37,551 nucleotides of DNA from a virus, in UHGV virus genome UHGV-0071294, one strand, 5' to 3'. Position 1 is the first letter of the stretch, and every line of letters begins with the position of its first letter. Shown here one piece after another: positions 1,558 to 9,854 of this stretch. Below the pieces are notes generated by a model. It saw only the letters and a program-made list of their open reading frames with translations. It was not told the DNA's origin and ran no database searches. The position numbers and the translations under genes are program-made.

Positions 1558-1965
1558 TTATTTGTTTGCGCTTCTTTTGCGAGCTTTGAGTAGTTCTTCA
1601 AAAAGTTTGTTGAAATTTTCAACTCGAGCACGCATCTCTGACAACAGGGCCTTTTGCTCTGACTCAGGCAGTGCGTCGAACAGTTGAAGTAACTCTTTTT
1701 GATCTTCTGTCAGAATGGCTGGTTGATTATCCGGGAGCGGTTCGCCTGGTTGTTTATCTTCATCCCCAAAAAGAAGCCAAGTCGGTGAGCACTGAAGCGC
1801 TTGGCTCAGTGCGAATAATCTTTTCCCCGCCGGCTGTGTTTCATCTCTTTCCCATTGAGAAATTGTTACGTGAGCCACTTTGACCAGCTTACCTAATGCG
1901 GCCTGAGACAGTTTTAATTTTTTACGCCTATGTAAGAGGCGAGCACCGAAGGTTTCGTTTTTCAT
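1558..1965 (-). CDS. XRE-family HTH repressor, DicA/cI-like (135 aa), with no LexA-type S24 peptidase domain
   Basis: N-terminal HTH (LSQAALGKLVKVAHVTISQWERDETQP); C-terminus recalled as DicA-like (NFNKLFEELLKA); divergent from a Cro-like gene; too short to carry an autocleavage domain. Confidence 0.75.
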   Translation of the reverse strand: MKNETFGARLLHRRKKLKLSQAALGKLVKVAHVTISQWERDETQPAGKRLFALSQALQCSPTWLLFGDEDKQPGEPLPDNQPAILTEDQKELLQLFDALPESEQKALLSEMRARVENFNKLFEELLKARKRSANK

Positions 1966-2269: not shown

Positions 2270-2804
2270 ACAGGTTTGTGAGGCTCTGGATGCCTGGGTA
2301 TGCCGACCAGGAATGACACAGGAGCAGGCGACGATATTAATCACGGAAGCATTCTGGGCTCTGAAAGAACGCCCGAACATTGATGTTCAACGCGTCACGT
2401 TTGATGATGGCGCGGTTGATCAACGGGCACTGGGCGTTAACCGGGTGAAGATATTCGAACGCTGGAAAGCTATCGACACCAGGGATAAGCGTGAAAAATT
2501 CACGGCGCTGATTCCGGCAATTATGGAGGCTATCCGGATCAGCGATTTCAGGTTGTATTGTGAAATTACTGACGGAAAAAGCATTACGTACATGATCGCC
2601 GGGTTAAACAAAGAATATGGCGATGTGGTGGAGTCCGGGCTGCTTTTTGCGGATCCAGCTGTTGTGGAGCGTGAGACTGACGAGCTTATAGAAAAAGCTA
2701 TTGCTTTCAAGCATGCGTATCGTCAGCAATACCAACATTACTTTGCAGATAAACAAATATCTGTCTGGGGTTCGTATGAGTATCGATGCACTACGATGGG
2801 CTAA
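2253..2804 (+). CDS. CII/YdaT-like phage regulatory protein (183 aa)
   Basis: Position immediately after the cro-like gene with an overlapping start; the family assignment is from memory of YdaT/CII-like proteins and is uncertain. Confidence 0.45.
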   Translation: MKITPEQVCEALDAWVCRPGMTQEQATILITEAFWALKERPNIDVQRVTFDDGAVDQRALGVNRVKIFERWKAIDTRDKREKFTALIPAIMEAIRISDFRLYCEITDGKSITYMIAGLNKEYGDVVESGLLFADPAVVERETDELIEKAIAFKHAYRQQYQHYFADKQISVWGSYEYRCTTMG

Positions 2805-3816
2805 AAAGGTGAAAACCGGCAGTTCATCCAGCAAGTCAGTATTGACCTGGCTTGCTGATATGTGCGGTGCCGATTTGTGTGCATACCCGTCTGTATCTGC
2901 ACTGGCAGAAGTAACGGAACTGAACAAAAAGACTGTGCAGGACAGCTTACGACACCTGATGGAGATTGGGTTAATTGTTGATACCGGTGAGAGAAAAGGC
3001 AGAACAAAGCAAATTGTGGTGTACCGACTTATCGGTGTAGAAGAAAGTGTTGCCGAGCCTGAATACACCCAAAAACGGGAGTCTTTAAAGGTGGGTAAAA
3101 TTGGTGCTGTTAATAAAAACAGTACCGAAAATGGTTATGTTTCAGCACAAAACAGCCCCAAAAACGGAACTCTTAGCTGCATGGAAAATAACCAAAGACA
3201 CCCAAATTTTCCATCAAAGACACCCAAAAACGGATCACGGAACCCAAAGGAACCCAAAGATCTAACCCCCACACATAACGCACGCGAGAGTGCTCCGACC
3301 AGTGAGCAGGAAGTTTTGTCGTTACAGGCAGCACCCCCTGTATTCCTGGGTGGCCTGAGCGAACCCATCGGAAAATTTCCGATGACCGATAGCTGGTATC
3401 CGTCACGGGATTTTCGACGACGGGCTGCGTTGTGGGGGATGGCTTTGCCGGAGACAGAATTTACACCTGCTGAACTTGCCGCCTTCCGGGACTACTGGGC
3501 AGCGGAGGGGAAAGTATTTACGCAGATTCAGTGGGAGCAGAAATTCGCCCGTCACGTAAATCACGTCAGGGCGCAGGTTAAACCAGTCAGCAAGGGGGTG
3601 AACCATGCAGCAGCACCAGGTGGCACCGCATCACGGGCAGTTCAGGAAATTCGGGCAGCACGTGAGCAGTGGGAACGTGAAAACGGATTTATCAGCGACG
3701 GAAACGGCCTGGAAGCTGTGGGAACTCATGGGGGAGGTTTATTCGAACCGCTGGACTCAGAAGAACGGGGCCGCACCTTCGAAGCTCTGGATTGCACAGA
3801 TTGGCGCGATGACTGA
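2776..3816 (+). CDS. Replication initiation protein (O-like N-terminal HTH, DnaT-like C-terminal domain)
   Basis: N-terminus MSIDALRWAKK...LTWLADMCGA; C-terminal region DSWYPSRDFRRRAALWGM...FTQIQWEQKFARHVNHV resembles the DnaT-like domain of phage replication proteins. The start at 2776 is chosen within ORF 2701..3816. The last ~70 codons are low-complexity and overlap the next gene. Confidence 0.65.
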   Translation: MSIDALRWAKKVKTGSSSSKSVLTWLADMCGADLCAYPSVSALAEVTELNKKTVQDSLRHLMEIGLIVDTGERKGRTKQIVVYRLIGVEESVAEPEYTQKRESLKVGKIGAVNKNSTENGYVSAQNSPKNGTLSCMENNQRHPNFPSKTPKNGSRNPKEPKDLTPTHNARESAPTSEQEVLSLQAAPPVFLGGLSEPIGKFPMTDSWYPSRDFRRRAALWGMALPETEFTPAELAAFRDYWAAEGKVFTQIQWEQKFARHVNHVRAQVKPVSKGVNHAAAPGGTASRAVQEIRAAREQWERENGFISDGNGLEAVGTHGGGLFEPLDSEERGRTFEALDCTDWRDD

Positions 3817-4270
3817 GCAGCAAATCCGGCAGGTCTGCCGCCAGTGCATGGACCGTTGCAGGGCAGGTGAAACATGGCCTCCGGACCTGGCTGAGTTTGT
3901 GGCGCTGATTTCGGAGAGCGGGGCAAATCCATTTGGTCTGACGGTGGATAACGTGATGGAGGAGTACCGACGCTGGCGCAACGAGTCCTGGCGATACGAC
4001 GGAAGCGATAAATACCCGTGGTCTCAGCCTGTGCTGTATCACATTTGTCTCGAGATGCGTTCAAAGGGGATTGAGCGCCAGATGACCGAAGGGGAATTAA
4101 AACGGCTTGCAGAACGGCAACTGACGAAATGGGCAAAGCATGTTGGTAACGGACTGAGTGTTCCACCCGTCCGTAGGCAACTGGCAGCACCCATACGTCC
4201 TGCGGGACCAACGCCAATTGAGTTGCTGAAACAGGAATATGAACGCAGGAAAGCGGCAGGTTTTGTTTGA
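3605..4270 (+). CDS. Replication protein P-like (helicase loader)
   Basis: Segments TWPPDLAEFVAL, YPWSQPVLYHI and TEGELKRLAERQL parallel lambda P (PGQFVAWC, YPWKSNAHYWLV, TDAELRRKAADEL); good RBS (GGGGGTG) before the ATG at 3605. Overlaps the preceding gene by 212 bp. Confidence 0.65.
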   Translation: MQQHQVAPHHGQFRKFGQHVSSGNVKTDLSATETAWKLWELMGEVYSNRWTQKNGAAPSKLWIAQIGAMTEQQIRQVCRQCMDRCRAGETWPPDLAEFVALISESGANPFGLTVDNVMEEYRRWRNESWRYDGSDKYPWSQPVLYHICLEMRSKGIERQMTEGELKRLAERQLTKWAKHVGNGLSVPPVRRQLAAPIRPAGPTPIELLKQEYERRKAAGFV

Positions 4271-4299
4271 GTTGATAAGTAATTTTACCGGGAGGGTTT

Positions 4300-4695
4300 A
4301 TGGCGAAACCTTTTACACCCGAACAGCGGGAAGAGCTGAAGGCACGAATTATCGGATTGGTACGCAAAAATGGACGCATGACGATGTCGCAACTGGAGAG
4401 AGCGACGGGAGCTGGCTGGCATTCGGTCCGACGCTGCCTTGTGGATGTACTGGCTTGTGGTGATTTATACATGTCCGGGGAATACGGTGTTTTTGCATCA
4501 GAGCAGGCGTATCGTGAATGGCGTAAGACACCGGAGAAAACAACTGACCAGACACTGATTCGAAAGTTACCAGACGGAGAAATACGCCGCTACGACAGAC
4601 ACCTGAACATAATCTGTCGCGAGTGCCGGAAGAGTGAGGTTATGCAGCGAGTGCTGGCGTTTTATCAGGGGAAATTTCAGGAGGTGATGCTGTGA
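4300..4695 (+). CDS. hypothetical protein with a winged-helix-like N-terminus and a CxxC motif (131 aa)
   Basis: Strong RBS GGGAGGG; N-terminal segment IIGLVRKNGRMTMSQLERATG; C-terminal ICRECRKSE. Confidence 0.5.
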   Translation: MAKPFTPEQREELKARIIGLVRKNGRMTMSQLERATGAGWHSVRRCLVDVLACGDLYMSGEYGVFASEQAYREWRKTPEKTTDQTLIRKLPDGEIRRYDRHLNIICRECRKSEVMQRVLAFYQGKFQEVML

Positions 4696-4934
4696 GCGAA
4701 TCAAAATGTCAGGTTAATGGCAATCAGTTAGAACTATGTGCGGCACTGGCAAAAGCCCTTGAGCATGATGCTGAATACACGATGCGAAAAGGTCTGCTGA
4801 TATACAAAATCTGGAATGAGAATTTAACTCGCGCCCCTGATTTGGTGATGTTGCGTTCCGGTGAATTTTCTAAATCACCTATTCGAGTCTCATTTTGCCC
4901 GTTCTGTGGTGAAAGTCTGAAAACATGGAAATAA
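4692..4934 (+). CDS. small zinc-ribbon-like protein (80 aa)
   Basis: GTG start coupled to the upstream stop, with RBS AGGAGGTG; cysteine pairs CQVNGNQLELC and CPFCG. Confidence 0.4.
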   Translation: MSESKCQVNGNQLELCAALAKALEHDAEYTMRKGLLIYKIWNENLTRAPDLVMLRSGEFSKSPIRVSFCPFCGESLKTWK

Positions 4935-4945
4935 GGAGACAACCA

Positions 4946-5470
4946 GTGAGCAAGATTGACTATCAGGCACTGCGTGGGGCGGCAGAAGCAATAAAAATAG
5001 CAGCCACACCACAAAAATTGCTGGCATTTCGTATGAAAGCCACACCTCAGGTTGTGTTGGAACTGCTGGATGAACTGGAAATTAAAAGCAAACGAATTAA
5101 CGAGTTAATCAAGGGTGGTGAAAACGCCAAATACGTGACTGAAATTTTCCGACTTGAGAAAGAACGCATGGCGCTGGCGGCGGAGAATGCGGGGCTGAAT
5201 AAATTTATCGTACAGAGTTGCTACGTGTTTGATGGCGAGCAGGATGAACTATCTGATGCGTATATCTGCGCAACAGACGGAGGTATGCCGCAAACCCCGG
5301 CTACAGATGCTTTCCTGGCTGATGTACGGGCGGTGGCGTTTGACGAACTTCGCGCGGCGTTTGTCAGGCACGTAAAAGTTGCAGGACTGGATGAGGCCGA
5401 TACCGTAACGCTTAAGGAAGTGACAGAAGCATTGTTGCATTGTGCGGAACAGATTCGCGCGCCTGAATAA
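4946..5470 (+). CDS. hypothetical protein, possibly Ead/Ea22-like
   Basis: Part of ORF 4925..5470; GTG at 4946 has an AAGGAGA RBS 7 nt upstream; the family guess is from memory only. Confidence 0.4.
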   Translation: MSKIDYQALRGAAEAIKIAATPQKLLAFRMKATPQVVLELLDELEIKSKRINELIKGGENAKYVTEIFRLEKERMALAAENAGLNKFIVQSCYVFDGEQDELSDAYICATDGGMPQTPATDAFLADVRAVAFDELRAAFVRHVKVAGLDEADTVTLKEVTEALLHCAEQIRAPE

Positions 5471-5564
5471 TTAAATTTAGTGTTGTAAATAAAATTTAAT
5501 CCTTAACCGGAGGGATTTCTGCACCCTCAGAACATCAGGAGGCCGCCCGAAAGGGCGGTAATGA

Positions 5565-5783
5565 ATGGTCACATTATTCAGAAAAAAATATCCACGAAAG
5601 AGTAGAACAACAGAATTTCTGTTTCTCATTCTGTTTATCGTGTTGATGATACCGATATCCCCGCTAATTTTTGTCTGGGCAATCGGGAAAATAATTGAGC
5701 CAGTTATTGAATTGTATAACGACGTGGTGTGGGCGTCGTTCAACACACTGCACAATAAAATTAACCCGTATAAGGAAAGCTGA
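5565..5783 (+). CDS. small putative membrane protein (72 aa)
   Basis: Hydrophobic stretch FLFLILFIVLMIPISPLIFVWAIG; weak translation signals. Confidence 0.3.
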   Translation: MVTLFRKKYPRKSRTTEFLFLILFIVLMIPISPLIFVWAIGKIIEPVIELYNDVVWASFNTLHNKINPYKES

Positions 5784-5784
5784 T

Positions 5785-6150
5785 ATGGCACTGACGAAAA
5801 AGCAACGTGCAGAACTGCGCATGAAGTTCGGTGGTCGCTGTGCTTATTGCGGCTGCGAACTTGGCGAAAAGTGGCATGCAGACCATGTAAAACCGGTCAT
5901 TCGTTTTGATGGAAATATGCTTCACCAGGAACGTGACGGTATATCCAACATGGTTCCGGCATGCCACCCATGCAATCTGCACAAGCATTGCAGTAGCCTG
6001 GAAGATTATCGGCGAATTATCAGTGATGGTCGTCGTGAATTCCTTGCGTCCGGGAAAGGCAAAGCGCTGGTTCGTATGGGATTGGTTGAAATGAAACCTG
6101 ACCCGGTTGTGTTCTGGTTTGAAAAATATCAAGAAGGGGCTACAGCATGA
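5785..6150 (+). CDS. HNH endonuclease (121 aa)
   Basis: Motifs CAYCGCEL...HADHVKP...ACHPCNLHKH fit the HNH Cys/His pattern; ATG at 5785 with RBS AAGGAAAG. Confidence 0.7.
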   Translation: MALTKKQRAELRMKFGGRCAYCGCELGEKWHADHVKPVIRFDGNMLHQERDGISNMVPACHPCNLHKHCSSLEDYRRIISDGRREFLASGKGKALVRMGLVEMKPDPVVFWFEKYQEGATA

Positions 6151-6710
6151 CCACTTTTACCAATAGCAAACTAACAGACGAATACGTTTCAAATGCAACG
6201 TTGATTCGGCTCATTCTGTGGGCTGACCAGCACAATAGTCATTATGTTGCAGCGGCTCTGCGCGAGCTACAGGAGCGCCGCAAGGCTGATAGTGTGCCTG
6301 TAGAAATCAACGACGACATGGCTTACGCATTCCATCGCGCACTGTCAGATTCATCGCCAGGCGCTGATGAGGTAGAGGAAATTAAGACAGGGTTGCGTGC
6401 AGCCTTTGCCAATGTCACCACCCAACCAGCACCAGTAGTGCCGGAATTTGAAACATGGTTTAACAGCCAGGAGTCAGGGAGGAGTATATGCAGCACACAG
6501 ATTCGTCGTTCCCTTCAGGAAATTTCATGGAACGCCTGCCGCGCCGCCATGCTTAAGGGAGATAAATCACGATTAATCGAACCAAACTGGAGCACATTCT
6601 CGAATATGCCAGGCAGCAGAAATGTATTGGGCAACTTTGTAAAATTCCACCAGGAGATATGGTTGAAATCGTGGAAATTGCCATGCGCAAGGCTGGCAAC
6701 TCTCCGGTAA
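6147..6710 (+). CDS. hypothetical protein (187 aa); the 3' part may be frameshifted into the next ORF
   Basis: The N-terminal ~110 aa look protein-like; after about 6550 the frame becomes W-rich and odd, while the +2 frame is open from 6566 and continues into the DUF551-like ORF. Confidence 0.45.
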   Translation: MTTFTNSKLTDEYVSNATLIRLILWADQHNSHYVAAALRELQERRKADSVPVEINDDMAYAFHRALSDSSPGADEVEEIKTGLRAAFANVTTQPAPVVPEFETWFNSQESGRSICSTQIRRSLQEISWNACRAAMLKGDKSRLIEPNWSTFSNMPGSRNVLGNFVKFHQEIWLKSWKLPCARLATLR

Positions 6711-6928
6711 CTCCGGATGGTTGGATAAGCTGTAGTGAGCGAATGCCGGATACCAAAACAGCCGTTCTTGTTGCCGTGGAGTTTGACAGGAAAGGTGACT
6801 GGCGAATGAAATGGGCGACTTACATCCCGGGGCATCCTGACGCTAATGATGGGTGGATAATTCCTGGTGCGTCGTGGAAACCGTCACACTGGATGCCGCT
6901 ACCGGAACCGCCACAGGAGGTGAGTTAA
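6659..6928 (+). CDS. DUF551-like protein (89 aa from the first ATG; its frame is open from 6566)
   Basis: Sequence MVEIVEIAMRKAGNSPVTPDGWISCSERMPD...WMPLPEPP recalled as the DUF551 type found in enterobacterial prophages; upstream start uncertain. Confidence 0.45.
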   Translation: MVEIVEIAMRKAGNSPVTPDGWISCSERMPDTKTAVLVAVEFDRKGDWRMKWATYIPGHPDANDGWIIPGASWKPSHWMPLPEPPQEVS

Positions 6929-7011
6929 TGACCTGGCCTGAAGCATTCACAACGGTAGGAATTGCGATGGCGGTGGCGCTGGTGGTGTATTCGATTTGCC
7001 GTTGGGGATAA
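6928..7011 (+). CDS. small membrane peptide (27 aa, MTWPEAFTTVGIAMAVALVVYSICRWG)
   Basis: Strong RBS CAGGAGG 7 nt upstream; TAATG overlap with the preceding stop; single hydrophobic helix. Translated by hand, too short for the ORF track. Confidence 0.35.
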   Translation: MTWPEAFTTVGIAMAVALVVYSICRWG

Positions 7012-7150
7012 ATCACCGTAAAAAAAGACCCCGACACAAACATGAGCCGGGATCTTTGATTTATATAGCTTACGAATCCGCCAGTAAGAGAGCGGGGCGG
7101 ATGGCTTATTTTAACATTGGGGTGGAGGAACCAAAAGTGTTGTTTTGGCT

Positions 7151-7172
7151 TACCAAAACGATCGTTTTGGTA
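7151..7172. promoter_or_regulatory. Perfect 22-bp palindrome TACCAAAACGATCGTTTTGGTA, a candidate operator
   Basis: Read directly from the sequence; lies about 110 bp upstream of the putative antitoxin gene in an otherwise non-coding stretch. Confidence 0.4.
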
Positions 7173-7283
7173 GCTAAAAATTTTTATCCGCATTAGACTA
7201 ATCTAACCTTAGTACTACACTATTAATTACGCGCCAGGTTGGTGCGTTGGCCTTGCCAAAAGAACTTCAAGGGAAACGACAAG

Positions 7284-7463
7284 ATGAGCTACGCACTCAA
7301 GAAACACACACGGCTAAATATTCCGCCTCGCGACAAACGGGTTGTGGCAGCCCCTCGCCCGGCGATTGATGAAAACTGCACTCATCGTGAGCAGGTGAAA
7401 AATGCTTTCGATTTCGGTTTTTCTCGTTACGAGAAGGCAATGGAAGAACTTTCAAAAGTGTAA
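7284..7463 (+). CDS. putative antitoxin partner of the Doc/Fic toxin (59 aa)
   Basis: Small ORF ending 18 bp upstream of the toxin gene, the typical TA arrangement; no recognised antitoxin motif. Confidence 0.4.
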   Translation: MSYALKKHTRLNIPPRDKRVVAAPRPAIDENCTHREQVKNAFDFGFSRYEKAMEELSKV

Positions 7464-7481
7464 TGATGGGTATTGTGCTCT

Positions 7482-7961
7482 ATGGCTGAGATTGTTGAAG
7501 GAGTGCATTACCTTACGGTTGATGATCTTGTTGAAATCAATCGTTCCCTAATTGAATTACAGACGCCAGATGAGCCCGTTGGTGTTCTGAGTCCAGATAG
7601 CTTAAGTTCTTCTCAGGCCCGTCCCAGCATGGTTCGATGGTATGAACAGACTAATGACATGTTTGTACTGGTATCGGTATTGATTGAAAGTCTGATTCAG
7701 AATCATCCGTTTGCTAATGCGAACAAACGAACAGCTATGATGGCTGGTTACGTCTTCTTGTTGTTGAATGGCTATGAGTTAACAGCACCAGGCGATGAAA
7801 TCGTGGAAATGGCAGAGGGACTGGCCTGCAAAACCTATACTCGAGAAGATCTCGAGAACTGGTTGTGTTATTGGTCTCGTGCGTATGACAGCCGGGAATT
7901 ATGTAAAACAGGCGCAACTATTGTTTTGTATGAAACTATCAAGCTTAAAATAGAACAGTAA
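7482..7961 (+). CDS. Fic/Doc-family toxin (death-on-curing-like)
   Basis: Motif HPFANANKRTAMMAGYVFLLLNGY matches the Doc/Fic core HxFx(D/N)(A/G)NKR (P1 Doc HIFNDANKRTA); followed by an intrinsic terminator. Confidence 0.75.
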   Translation: MAEIVEGVHYLTVDDLVEINRSLIELQTPDEPVGVLSPDSLSSSQARPSMVRWYEQTNDMFVLVSVLIESLIQNHPFANANKRTAMMAGYVFLLLNGYELTAPGDEIVEMAEGLACKTYTREDLENWLCYWSRAYDSRELCKTGATIVLYETIKLKIEQ

Positions 7962-7981
7962 AACTAAAGGTGCTTCTAATG

Positions 7982-8006
7982 AAAACCCGCTTCGGCGGGT
8001 TTTTTG
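7982..8006 (+). terminator. Rho-independent terminator
   Basis: Hairpin ACCCGC-TTCG-GCGGGT followed by TTTTTT. Confidence 0.7.
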
Positions 8007-8087
8007 TTGTTTATCTTCGGTGAGCTTGATGCATCTGGTTGTACTGATGTGGCTGTCTGATTTTGTTATTCAGGTGGCTTATTGCTG

Positions 8088-8115
8088 TTGATTGGTATGT
8101 CTTCACGGCTAGAAT
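8088..8115 (+). promoter_or_regulatory. Putative sigma70 promoter (-35 TTGATT, 16-bp spacer, -10 TAGAAT)
   Basis: Close match to consensus, located downstream of the terminator and upstream of the 8197 ORF. Confidence 0.4.
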
Positions 8116-8196
8116 CGAGGCTCTTAAGTAGCGCGCAGGGAGAAGAGGGATGGACCCCGAACAGGGGAGTGCTATTTATCTGGAAGGATTCTGTTG

Positions 8197-8457
8197 ATGA
8201 AAATCGAAGAATTGCGTGAAATTTTTAGTGAAGATGGCCTCTATACTGTGCGCGTTGAGAATGGCGCTATTGTCAGCCACTGCCGTATTAAATGTTTACA
8301 GTCTCAACAAAGGAAGAGTGGGGCTGCGTTAATTTACTTTGTGGATGGACTTGTGACGGATGGTTTTATTTTGCGTGAAAATGAATTTGTCACATCATTG
8401 CAGTCTCTGAAAGAAGCTGAGCTTAAGGCTGGTTTTTCTGCTTTTGAAGATGTGTGA
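8197..8457 (+). CDS. hypothetical protein (86 aa)
   Basis: ATG at 8197 with a GGAAGG RBS; no recognisable motif. Confidence 0.4.
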   Translation: MKIEELREIFSEDGLYTVRVENGAIVSHCRIKCLQSQQRKSGAALIYFVDGLVTDGFILRENEFVTSLQSLKEAELKAGFSAFEDV

Positions 8458-8524
8458 ATTCAACTACAATTTAGCGCAGGGCTGAACCCCCTGTTGAGTA
8501 ACACTGTGCCACCGGAGAAAACCG

Positions 8525-8803
8525 ATGGCGCAAAATTCCAGACTACACAATTCTGATAATTCAGCCGTCTTTGCCAGCAGGCACGGGCGGCGTTCTCATG
8601 CATTCAAATATGACTGGTACCAGCATGACCCATGCACTGAAGAACAGGCCGAATGGCTGATTCAGAACTACCGCAGACGTGGGTATGAGTTTAGGAAAGC
8701 CCTCAGCCTCGATTATCGTCACTGGATAATCTACGTCAGGCTCCCTTACTCCGAACGCCCACCGCGTCCGTCCCGCACATTCCAGCAACGCATCTGGAGG
8801 TAA
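8525..8803 (+). CDS. hypothetical protein (92 aa)
   Basis: RBS GGAGAAAACC before the ATG; no recognisable motif. Confidence 0.4.
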   Translation: MAQNSRLHNSDNSAVFASRHGRRSHAFKYDWYQHDPCTEEQAEWLIQNYRRRGYEFRKALSLDYRHWIIYVRLPYSERPPRPSRTFQQRIWR

Positions 8804-8804
8804 C

Positions 8805-9854
8805 GTGCGGGTATTGCTTCGACCTGTTCCGGTACCGGAACTCGGGCTGGTGGTCTTTAAGCCTGGTCGTGAATCCATGCAGGTATTTCATAACCCTCGA
8901 GTGCTGGTGGAGCCGGAACCGAAAAGCATGCGCGGTCTGCCGTCCGGAGTTGTTCCTGCCGTTCGCCAGCCGCTGGCAGAAGATAAATCATTGCTGCCAT
9001 TTTTCAGCGACGAACGGGTGATTCGTGCTGCCGGCGGCGCTGGTGCACTGTCTGACTGGCTCCTGCGTCATGTTAAATCCTGCCAGTGGTCTCATGGTGA
9101 CTACCATCACAGTGAAACCGTCATACATCGTTACGGTACCGGCGCGATGGTGTTGTGCTGGCACTGCGACAACCAGCTGCGTGACCAGACCTCAGAATCA
9201 CTTGAGCAACTTGCTCAACAAAACCTGACAGCATGGATGATTGACGTCATCCGTCACGCAATAAGCGGTGCGCAGGAGCGTGAATTATCGCTGGCTGAAT
9301 TATCCTGGTGGGCTGTCTGCAATCAGGTGGTGGACGCACTACCGGAGGTAGTATTACGTCGTTCTCTGGGGTTACGTGCGGAAAAAATTCGCTCGGTGTA
9401 CCGCGAAAGCGACATCATACCGGGAGAGCAGACCGCCACCAGCATACTGAAGCAGCGCACAAAAAATCTTGCGCCGTTGCCTCACGCCCACCAGCAACCG
9501 AACCCACCACAGGAAAAGACGGTGGTCAGTATCGCCGTTGATCCGGAGTCTCCTGAATCTTTCATGAAGCGACCTAAACGTCGCCGTTGGGTGAATGAGA
9601 AATACACGCGTTGGGTAAAGACACAGCCGTGTGCGTGTTGTGGTAAGCCAGCAGACGATCCCCATCACCTGATTGGTCATGGTCAGGGCGGGATGGGAAC
9701 AAAATCCCACGATATTTTCACGCTACCGTTGTGTCGGGAGCATCACAACGAGCTTCATGCGGATCCGCTGGCGTTCGAAGAAAAGCATGGTTCCCAGATT
9801 GATTTAATTTTTCGTTTTCTTGATCACGCCTTTGCAACCGGCGTGCTCGGGTAA
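8805..9854 (+). CDS. DUF968/YdfU-like protein with a C-terminal Cys/His cluster (349 aa)
   Basis: C-terminal CACCGKPADDPHHLIGHG...LPLCREHHNELH; size and position (before rusA and Q) recall Qin ydfU; GTG start with a GGAGG RBS. Confidence 0.55.
   Translation: MRVLLRPVPVPELGLVVFKPGRESMQVFHNPRVLVEPEPKSMRGLPSGVVPAVRQPLAEDKSLLPFFSDERVIRAAGGAGALSDWLLRHVKSCQWSHGDYHHSETVIHRYGTGAMVLCWHCDNQLRDQTSESLEQLAQQNLTAWMIDVIRHAISGAQERELSLAELSWWAVCNQVVDALPEVVLRRSLGLRAEKIRSVYRESDIIPGEQTATSILKQRTKNLAPLPHAHQQPNPPQEKTVVSIAVDPESPESFMKRPKRRRWVNEKYTRWVKTQPCACCGKPADDPHHLIGHGQGGMGTKSHDIFTLPLCREHHNELHADPLAFEEKHGSQIDLIFRFLDHAFATGVLG

Follow-up and report, generated by a model that had tools for sequence, protein, structure and literature searches.

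Positions 4300-7011 of the virus genome UHGV-0071294 (the window: an entire metagenome contig of 37,551 bp, ENA ERZ1742081 NODE_290, with a coverage of ~200x) are an accessory-gene stretch in the rightward early operon of an Escherichia coli lambdoid phage or prophage. Within this stretch, an open reading frame (ORF) of 187 amino acids (aa; 6147-6710, + strand) runs out of frame into a gene for a DUF551 protein. We attribute this, with a probability of about 90%, to a point mutation: a single T>C substitution at position 6570 that struck a base shared, within an ATGA tetranucleotide, by the stop codon of the upstream gene and the start codon of the DUF551 gene, in a decay of two coupled accessory genes.

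The frame switch at position 6570

A first-pass annotation of this DNA had placed a probable frame disruption at 6550-6710. The disruption is real, and the +2 frame that opens there belongs to the DUF551 gene, but the switch point is 6570 and not ~6550. After a TAA at 6563-6565, frame +2 is open over 6566-6928, with its first ATG, GTG or TTG at 6659; conserved DUF551 coding sequence is found in this frame from 6569, that is, 90 nucleotides (nt) ahead of the ATG at 6659. The 31 open codons before that ATG are insignificant taken alone ((61/64)^31 ~0.23), and it is homology, not open length, that settles frame +2 as coding. The product read from 6569, T-INRTKLEHILEYARQQKCIGQLCKIPPGD-MVEIVEIAMRKAGNSPVTPDGWISCSERMPD..., aligns end to end, at 90-94% identity, with DUF551 proteins of 119-122 aa that begin MINR[TI]KLEH. 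Its residues 2-56 are matched by phrog_24004 (2e-38) and its residues 51-116 by the full 68-position profile of PF04448 (4.1e-22; 79.2 bits, cutoff 22), with phrog_924 as a further match. The ancestral extent of the DUF551 gene is 6569-6928 (+ strand; 119 aa plus stop, now with ACG as first codon; homologues begin MINR[TI]KLEHILEYARQQ). That of the upstream gene, here called the N-module gene, is 6147-6569 (+ strand), encoding 141 aa that end ...WNACRAAMLKGDKS (phrog_12449, 1e-40), where the homologues end ...AML[KQ]GDKS*.

Codon usage was scored per codon as a log-odds value, trained on the long genes of the window contig. The score is +0.065 for 6147-6569 and falls to -0.41 for the frame-0 tail at 6570-6707; over the span of this tail, frame +2 scores +0.05 and the unused third frame -0.47. 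Given this drop and the homology in frame +2, the 187-aa ORF is no longer real coding sequence from 6570. What follows is an out-of-frame read-through tail of 46 codons plus TAA (6570-6710, + strand) that extends the N-module protein to 187 aa, and the only cluster that covers the 187 aa with the tail included has two members (P0121/P0241).

The window was aligned with E. coli HSP60, O157:H7 FRIK944, GCA_974489905 and GCA_974481825, the 5' region of the DUF551 gene being otherwise nearly identical in the last two. All four homologues read GATAAATCATGATTAATCG where the window reads GATAAATCACGATTAATCG, with no gap in the window. In the homologue junction (...GATAAATCATGATTAAT...), ATGA combines the upstream TGA stop with the ATG start of the DUF551 gene; the window has ATCACGATT, with TGA (6570-6572) changed to CGA and ATG (6569-6571) changed to ACG on the + strand. 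Since both signals share the ATGA, one T>C at 6570 removes stop and start together. The window is free of gaps over 6528-6930 against O157 and over 6500-6720 against HSP60, and the T>C at 6570 is the sole relevant difference. RefSeq annotates two genes with a 4-nt overlap in both strains (134 and 121 aa in HSP60, 123 and 120 aa in FRIK944), the upstream proteins of these pairs ending ...AMLKGDKS* and ...AMLQGDKS*, respectively, and P0016 has exactly the N-terminal 69 DUF551 residues of the window, but with Met1.

The first-pass annotation had suggested a frameshifted fusion, a sequencing error or overlapping genes. A fusion, by an indel or by a programmed -1 ribosomal frameshift that joins the 187-aa ORF and DUF551 into one protein, has some appeal: a passage from frame 0 to frame +2 would equal a -1 shift, and the idea of a single gene is reasonable because the same N-module is fused in frame to DUF551 in other phages (P0139, P0147, P0149, P0159, P0163; a further fusion, in pNJS001, has 303 aa). 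We nevertheless consider it highly improbable. The window shows no gap against its nearest homologues across the junction, where those homologues have a separate stop and start and are annotated as two genes, and the natural fusions join at a WNAC..AML linker that lies upstream of 6570 and differ in linker sequence. A scan for slippery heptamers (X XXY YYZ) found none in register in 6566-6710; the single neighbouring heptamer (AAATTTC, 6520) is not in register and precedes the +2-frame stop. A frameshift (indel) pseudogene was thus rejected on the gap-free alignments at the frame switch, and a programmed -1 site on the lack of an in-register heptamer and on the separate stop and start of the relatives. 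As to whether the two proteins are normally one gene, they are two genes in the sub-family characterised by this junction (88 ATG loci) and in-frame fusions in other phages. The notion of overlapping genes holds in so far as the ancestral pair shares the 4-nt ATGA as stop and start; this overlap is trivial and not the cause of the disruption. Separate intact homologues of both ORFs, which the first-pass annotation had named, provided that the boundaries agree, as evidence against a disruption, do exist; however, their boundaries (stop 6570-6572, start 6569) differ from those of the window ORFs, and the disruption is therefore real. Intact genes of the sub-family beginning MINRTKLEH have an ATG that overlaps the TGA and a length of 115-122 aa; the window has ACG/CGA at 6569-6572.

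To see how common each allele is, IMG/VR and metagenome contigs were scanned for exact matches to a 23-mer spanning the junction. IMG/VR held 71 copies with ATG against one with ACG, and the metagenome contigs 15 against 0. The ATG form, ATCATGATT, is carried by 88 loci and the ACG form, ATCACGATT, by 8 loci, all of one lineage. The upstream-ending TGA overlaps the ATG in every ATG locus examined (88/88), and the DUF551 gene, which always starts MINR[TI]KLEHILEY..., is 115-122 aa long in 67 of the 84 loci where the contig end does not cut it. The ORFs upstream have varied N-terminal modules and lengths, and nearly all end ...C[RC]..ML[KQ]GDKS*. Across these 88 loci the junction thus marks a conserved border, with a variable gene upstream of it and the DUF551 gene downstream.

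Another possibility is that the C at 6570 arose by error in sequencing or assembly and that the real phage has a normal ATGA. Such an error might be suspected in a metagenome assembly whose exact 187-aa sequence is found on this contig only and whose exact 59-mer is in no complete E. coli genome: a megablast of this 59-mer against 5,426 complete E. coli genomes seeded in 10 of them and gave 0 identical matches, which is not a full census because O157-type junctions are too diverged for the 28-nt seed. The exact pattern ...ATCAYGATT... had 0 matches, for either allele, in the GTDB species-representative genomes, an uninformative result. Against an error stand the ~200x coverage and 16 further contigs, from at least six independent samples and four data sources, that all have C at the equivalent base and encode the 187-aa protein with one change (S122Y) and the same tail (ENA ERZ28569715, ERZ28634889 and ERZ24774904; JGI 3300028965, IMG/VR UViG_3300028965_000008; Logan SRR28286138; and NCBI GCA_044968025.1, an isolate-type assembly that carries the protein HGE9242846.1). 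With independent contigs carrying the same allele, a sequencing error was rejected as the cause, and we give it next to no probability. The ACG loci L007 and L010-L015, all with C at 6570, show 99.85-99.97% identity to the window across as much as 6.5 kb; ACG carriers can be told from the window by positions 6511 and 7029, and some by 4932 as well, which indicates that the lineage has diversified since the mutation. Judged from these sequences, C at 6570 is genuine and inherited within one near-clonal phage lineage.

Probable consequences for the two proteins

Without the stop codon, ribosomes translating the upstream gene would continue for another 46 codons, out of frame within the DUF551 gene, until the stop at 6708-6710, and the product would be a protein of 187 aa whose tail is junk. 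For the DUF551 gene, both the start codon and, because the upstream stop is gone, termination-coupled reinitiation would be lost. Its native Shine-Dalgarno (SD) sequence, AAGGGAG (6555-6561, + strand), is intact 7 nt before the former start, with an anti-SD duplex of -8.4 kcal/mol, and DUF551 would be made from the ACG behind it only at trace level; in E. coli, ACG is among the codons whose initiation reaches ~0.01-1% of the AUG level (Hecht et al., bioRxiv 10.1101/063800). The alternative product would be an N-terminally truncated protein of 89 aa from Met31, or possibly one from Met39. The ORF from Met31 (6659-6928, + strand) is the largest that remains with a canonical start and keeps the whole Pfam DUF551 core. 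Its ATG at 6659 has AGGAG just 2 nt upstream, and the sequence there, AGGAGATATG, is conserved coding sequence for P-G-D-M; an SD spacing of 2 nt is too short for efficient initiation. The DUF551 core (residues 51-116) would survive in the truncated product, with an output that is probably strongly reduced. As the Pfam core is intact from Met31, and as the first ~42 residues form an exchangeable N-module in this family, the Met31 product may retain residual DUF551 function.

Some points weigh against a plain loss of the DUF551 gene. Low-level initiation at ACG, internal initiation at Met31 or Met39, or reinitiation after 6708-6710 could supply enough DUF551; the allele persists in at least seven samples and is therefore not strongly deleterious; and the rest of the DUF551 frame is intact, which fits a recent lesion or a retained function. 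Nothing contradicts the point mutation itself, from which we infer the consequences for expression.

The same observations could be taken to mean that the allele is functional, either as a selected down-tuning or truncated isoform of DUF551 or as a new tail of the N-module protein gained by overprinting. This would fit an allele that occurs in several samples and has since diversified (S/Y at 6511 and the 4932 indel on the ACG background), the intact DUF551 core and frame, and the swappable nature of the N-terminal 42 residues of DUF551 proteins. However, all carriers are at least 99.85% identical, and persistence may reflect only recency and hitch-hiking; the codon usage of the tail is that of non-coding sequence, and its homologues are confined to the lineage; other prophages have independent inactivating lesions in DUF551, fitting dispensability; and the allele makes up only 1/72 of the copies in IMG/VR and 0/15 of those in metagenome contigs. 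A functional allele is for these reasons very unlikely, and so is its fullest version, in which ACG is a selected switch to low-level or truncated DUF551 plus a new overprinted 46-aa N-module tail; if true, the latter would be a case, caught in the act, of one base rewiring two coupled phage accessory genes. Within the point-mutation account, the lesion belongs to an early stage in the decay of accessory genes of a circulating prophage lineage and is not a programmed feature.

The relevance of the case is mainly one of annotation. A single base change within an ATGA overlap knocks out both genes together and, on inspection by eye, looks like a frameshift; gene callers report 187 aa plus 89 or 110 aa in place of the ancestral 141 aa plus 119 aa. 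Annotators disagree on the DUF551 gene of the ACG allele: Prodigal-type calls give 89 aa from ATG 6659, whereas an NCBI-sourced call (L012 3450-3782; window 6596-6928) gives 110 aa from ATT 6596, neither being the ancestral 119-aa gene. The gene set is already known and the lesion is lineage-specific; the case brings no new biology on the roles of the proteins.

The gene cluster and its setting

The left part of the window is a lambdoid immunity and early-right region, with a helix-turn-helix, CI-type repressor (1558-1965, minus strand), a replication protein with a DnaT domain (2701-3816) and a lambda-P-like protein (3848-4270). The cluster at 4300-7011 lies between these O/P-like replication genes and a Doc toxin module, and is followed by a 59-aa ORF, the Doc toxin, DUF968, RusA and the Q antiterminator. 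The ORF placement of the first-pass annotation was confirmed (4300-4695, 4692-4934, 4925/4946-5470, 5565-5783, 5785-6150, 6147-6710, 6659-6928 and 6928-7011, all + strand). The run of short, coupled ORFs that it described is likewise borne out by the sequence, in which junctions overlap or abut nearly everywhere (GTGA at 4692, TGAtATG at 5781-5787, ATGA at 6147 and TAATG at 6926-6930). A promoter scan found no sigma-70-like promoter in 4200-7600, consistent with a single polycistronic early transcript, and a terminator scan gave a lone + strand terminator-like hairpin at 7139-7162, outside the cluster. An Rfam search of 3500-9000 gave only sub-threshold matches, all outside 4300-7011. Directly after the Doc gene, at 7916-8006, these included rsmX (32.3 bits, gathering threshold 56) and istR (25.3 bits, gathering threshold 45), which are probably chance matches or terminator-like structure.

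The window is a mosaic in its DNA, with lambdoid and Shiga toxin (Stx) prophage sequence from E. coli, Shigella and Salmonella. Part of 4300-7011 is matched in 4,116 of the 5,426 complete E. coli genomes, and 0 of them cover 80% of it in one place; partial matches in a phage collection follow a similar pattern. RefSeq relatives have the same gene names in the same order, and the cluster is a standard, previously annotated lambdoid accessory gene set. The profile searches called for by the first-pass annotation confirm DUF977, Ead_Ea22, DUF4014, HNH and DUF551 with Pfam.

The first gene of the cluster (4300-4695, + strand) encodes a DUF977 protein of 131 aa (PF06163, 3.6e-63, 212 bits, cutoff 22.1; phrog_142, 2.5e-44), which PHROGs labels 'Ren-like exclusion protein' and RefSeq relatives 'DUF977 family protein'. 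The next gene (4692-4934, + strand), whose GTG start overlaps the DUF977 stop (GTGA), encodes a protein of 80 aa to which no function is assigned (phrog_4030, 5.3e-38; no Pfam match). An extra T at 4932 makes a TAA that cuts the 88-aa protein of phrog_4030 by 8 aa to 80 aa; this T is absent from the RefSeq strain OkiPb01676 (L001) and from L012 and L013, which have the 88-aa form, and present in L010 and L011, and the indel is thus polymorphic inside the lineage of the window phage itself. Some of the small proteins had been described as zinc-ribbon-like, which finds no support: the 80-aa and DUF977 proteins have one CxxC each and no match to a zinc-ribbon family.

An Ead/Ea22-like protein follows (4946-5470, + strand; 174 aa from GTG 4946; PF13935, 9.3e-10, 39.7 bits, cutoff 27). 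Its ORF is open from ATG 4925, and the PF13935 match of the ORF 4925-5470 is partial, covering profile positions 57-105 of 139. The start is most likely GTG 4946 and not ATG 4925, because an SD (AAGGAG) lies 6 nt upstream of the former and the latter has none; the gene call in L006 is 1800-2324. The DUF4014 gene (5565-5783, + strand) encodes a small membrane protein of 72 aa (PF13198, 1.6e-25, 89.7 bits, cutoff 23.2; phrog_1832, 9.7e-45) with one transmembrane helix, read from its hydrophobic stretch FLFLILFIVLMIPISPLIFVWAIG. The ENA gene calls for the window contig, L010, L013 and L014 miss this gene, which the JGI and NCBI copies and RefSeq relatives include. A predicted HNH endonuclease of 121 aa comes next (5785-6150, + strand; PF01844, 25.5 bits, cutoff 21.4; phrog_2118, 8.2e-56), with the motif residues CxxC...HADH...N...CHPCNLHK in its sequence and the annotation HNH endonuclease in RefSeq relatives. 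As to host-takeover or anti-defence functions, which the first-pass annotation had suggested for such clusters, a PADLOC-DB scan gave only weak, generic HNH-domain matches (PtuB, best 7.9e-08) without partner genes, and 0 matches for the other cluster proteins scanned; the neighbouring Doc, outside the cluster, gave two marginal PDC-S23 matches (E ~0.005-0.008).

Behind the N-module and DUF551 genes, the cluster ends with a putative single-transmembrane peptide of 27 aa, MTWPEAFTTVGIAMAVALVVYSICRWG (6928-7011, + strand), whose ATG overlaps the DUF551 stop (TAATG). It is preceded, 5 nt upstream, by a strong SD, GGAGGTGA (-11.6 kcal/mol), has no family match in Pfam or PHROGs, and is unannotated in the RefSeq relative L001. 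A 45-aa version that begins at 6874 is annotated in L012, the NCBI copy.

The predicted toxin next to the cluster (7473/7482-7961) belongs to the Doc family (TIGR01550, 1e-36, 125.8 bits, cutoff 38.65; PF02661, Fic) and falls in the PHROGs category 'moron/host takeover'. The 59-aa ORF directly upstream of it (7284-7463; phrog_2208) is its presumed antitoxin. Related prophages have the type I toxin hokD after the DUF551 gene, where the window has the 59-aa ORF and Doc instead, as if one toxin-antitoxin cassette had been exchanged for another at a single mosaic slot.

Module exchange and the closest known systems

The window N-module (residues 1-138) is found in three settings: joined to an unrelated C-terminal module, in a 199-aa protein behind the HNH gene (P0134 and strain 52F4); fused in frame to DUF551, in P0139 (238 aa), P0159 (272 aa), P0147, P0149 and P0163; and as a separate gene before DUF551. 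The unrelated modules are joined at a mosaic breakpoint, the conserved linker DNA TGGAACGCCTGCCGCGCCGCCATGCTT (6528-6554, + strand; aa WNACRAAML). In genome searches, 6147-6559 matches genes of the 52F4 type at 98.8% and 6528-6922 those of the O157 type at 94%, the two overlapping only at the linker. The linker motif (WNAC[RC]AAML) is kept in at least five gene architectures whose module joins fall there, and 6528-6554 is probably a recombination linker for module shuffling. Module-boundary mosaicism is usual in lambdoid phages, and we read the joins at WNAC[RC]AAML in the light of this established knowledge. The case illustrates how lambdoid accessory proteins are built from variable N-modules, the WNACRAAML linker and swappable C-modules including DUF551, which the literature on Ea22 calls a 'portable domain' (PMC10834534).

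Other copies of the DUF551 gene carry lesions of their own. GCA_974481825 and GCA_974489905 (L016, L017; 3001-3291, window ~6832) have the ATG allele and an N-terminus identical to that of the window, together with an independent lesion, the loss of 1 nt (CCCGGG to CCCGG), which leaves a DUF551 protein of 96 aa; pseudogene fragments of DUF551 are also found in PigCaeca_1. Such independent lesions suggest that these genes are often dispensable in resident prophages. A search of PDB sequences with the N-module and DUF551 proteins found nothing. A structure model of the 119-aa DUF551 protein from a shallow alignment was unusable (predicted local distance difference test, pLDDT, 47); the 89-aa core, modelled from a diverse alignment of 36 sequences, gave a small beta-rich domain (pLDDT 74; predicted template modelling score 0.61).

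A DUF551 domain is also ascribed, by description, to YfdS of the cryptic prophage CPS-53 of E. coli K-12, whose context (yfdQRST) differs from that of the window. A yfdS mutant is reported to be H2O2-sensitive, and the gene to contribute to multicopy suppression of hda-185; these are deletion or overexpression observations and not a mechanism (PMC4776307).

By architecture, the window proteins can be likened to Ea22 of lambda and its variants in Stx phages (Ead_Ea22, IPR025153), of which the V2 variant carries DUF551. Both are early lambdoid accessory genes and modular, combining variable modules with portable C-terminal domains that include DUF551, and a pro-lysogenic role has been shown for Ea22 (PMC10834534). 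However, ea22 of lambda belongs to the leftward operon (exo-xis region) and the cluster to the rightward operon, after O/P, and the window also has its separate Ead_Ea22 gene at 4946-5470.

In type, the N-module itself corresponds to the one behind the HNH gene of strain 52F4, with 98.8% identity over 6147-6559. The 199-aa 'hypothetical protein' WP_001605314.1 (P0134) shares its first ~138 residues with the window at 98% identity, as well as the gene order DUF4014-HNH-N-module; unlike the window, it continues in frame past WNAC..AML into an unrelated C-module of 60 aa and has no DUF551 gene behind it.

The closest known pairs are those of O157:H7 lambdoid prophages (FRIK944 and many others), with WP_000137941.1 (123 aa, hypothetical) and WP_000610379.1 (120 aa, DUF551), and of HSP60, with WP_458926735.1 and WP_115800900.1. 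They resemble the window in the junction GGGAGATAAATCATGATTAATCG, in the upstream C-terminus ...AML[KQ]GDKS and in their early position after the replication genes, and their DUF551 proteins are 90-94% identical to the window product over the full length. They differ from it in having other upstream N-modules and, where the window has ACGA, an intact ATGA.

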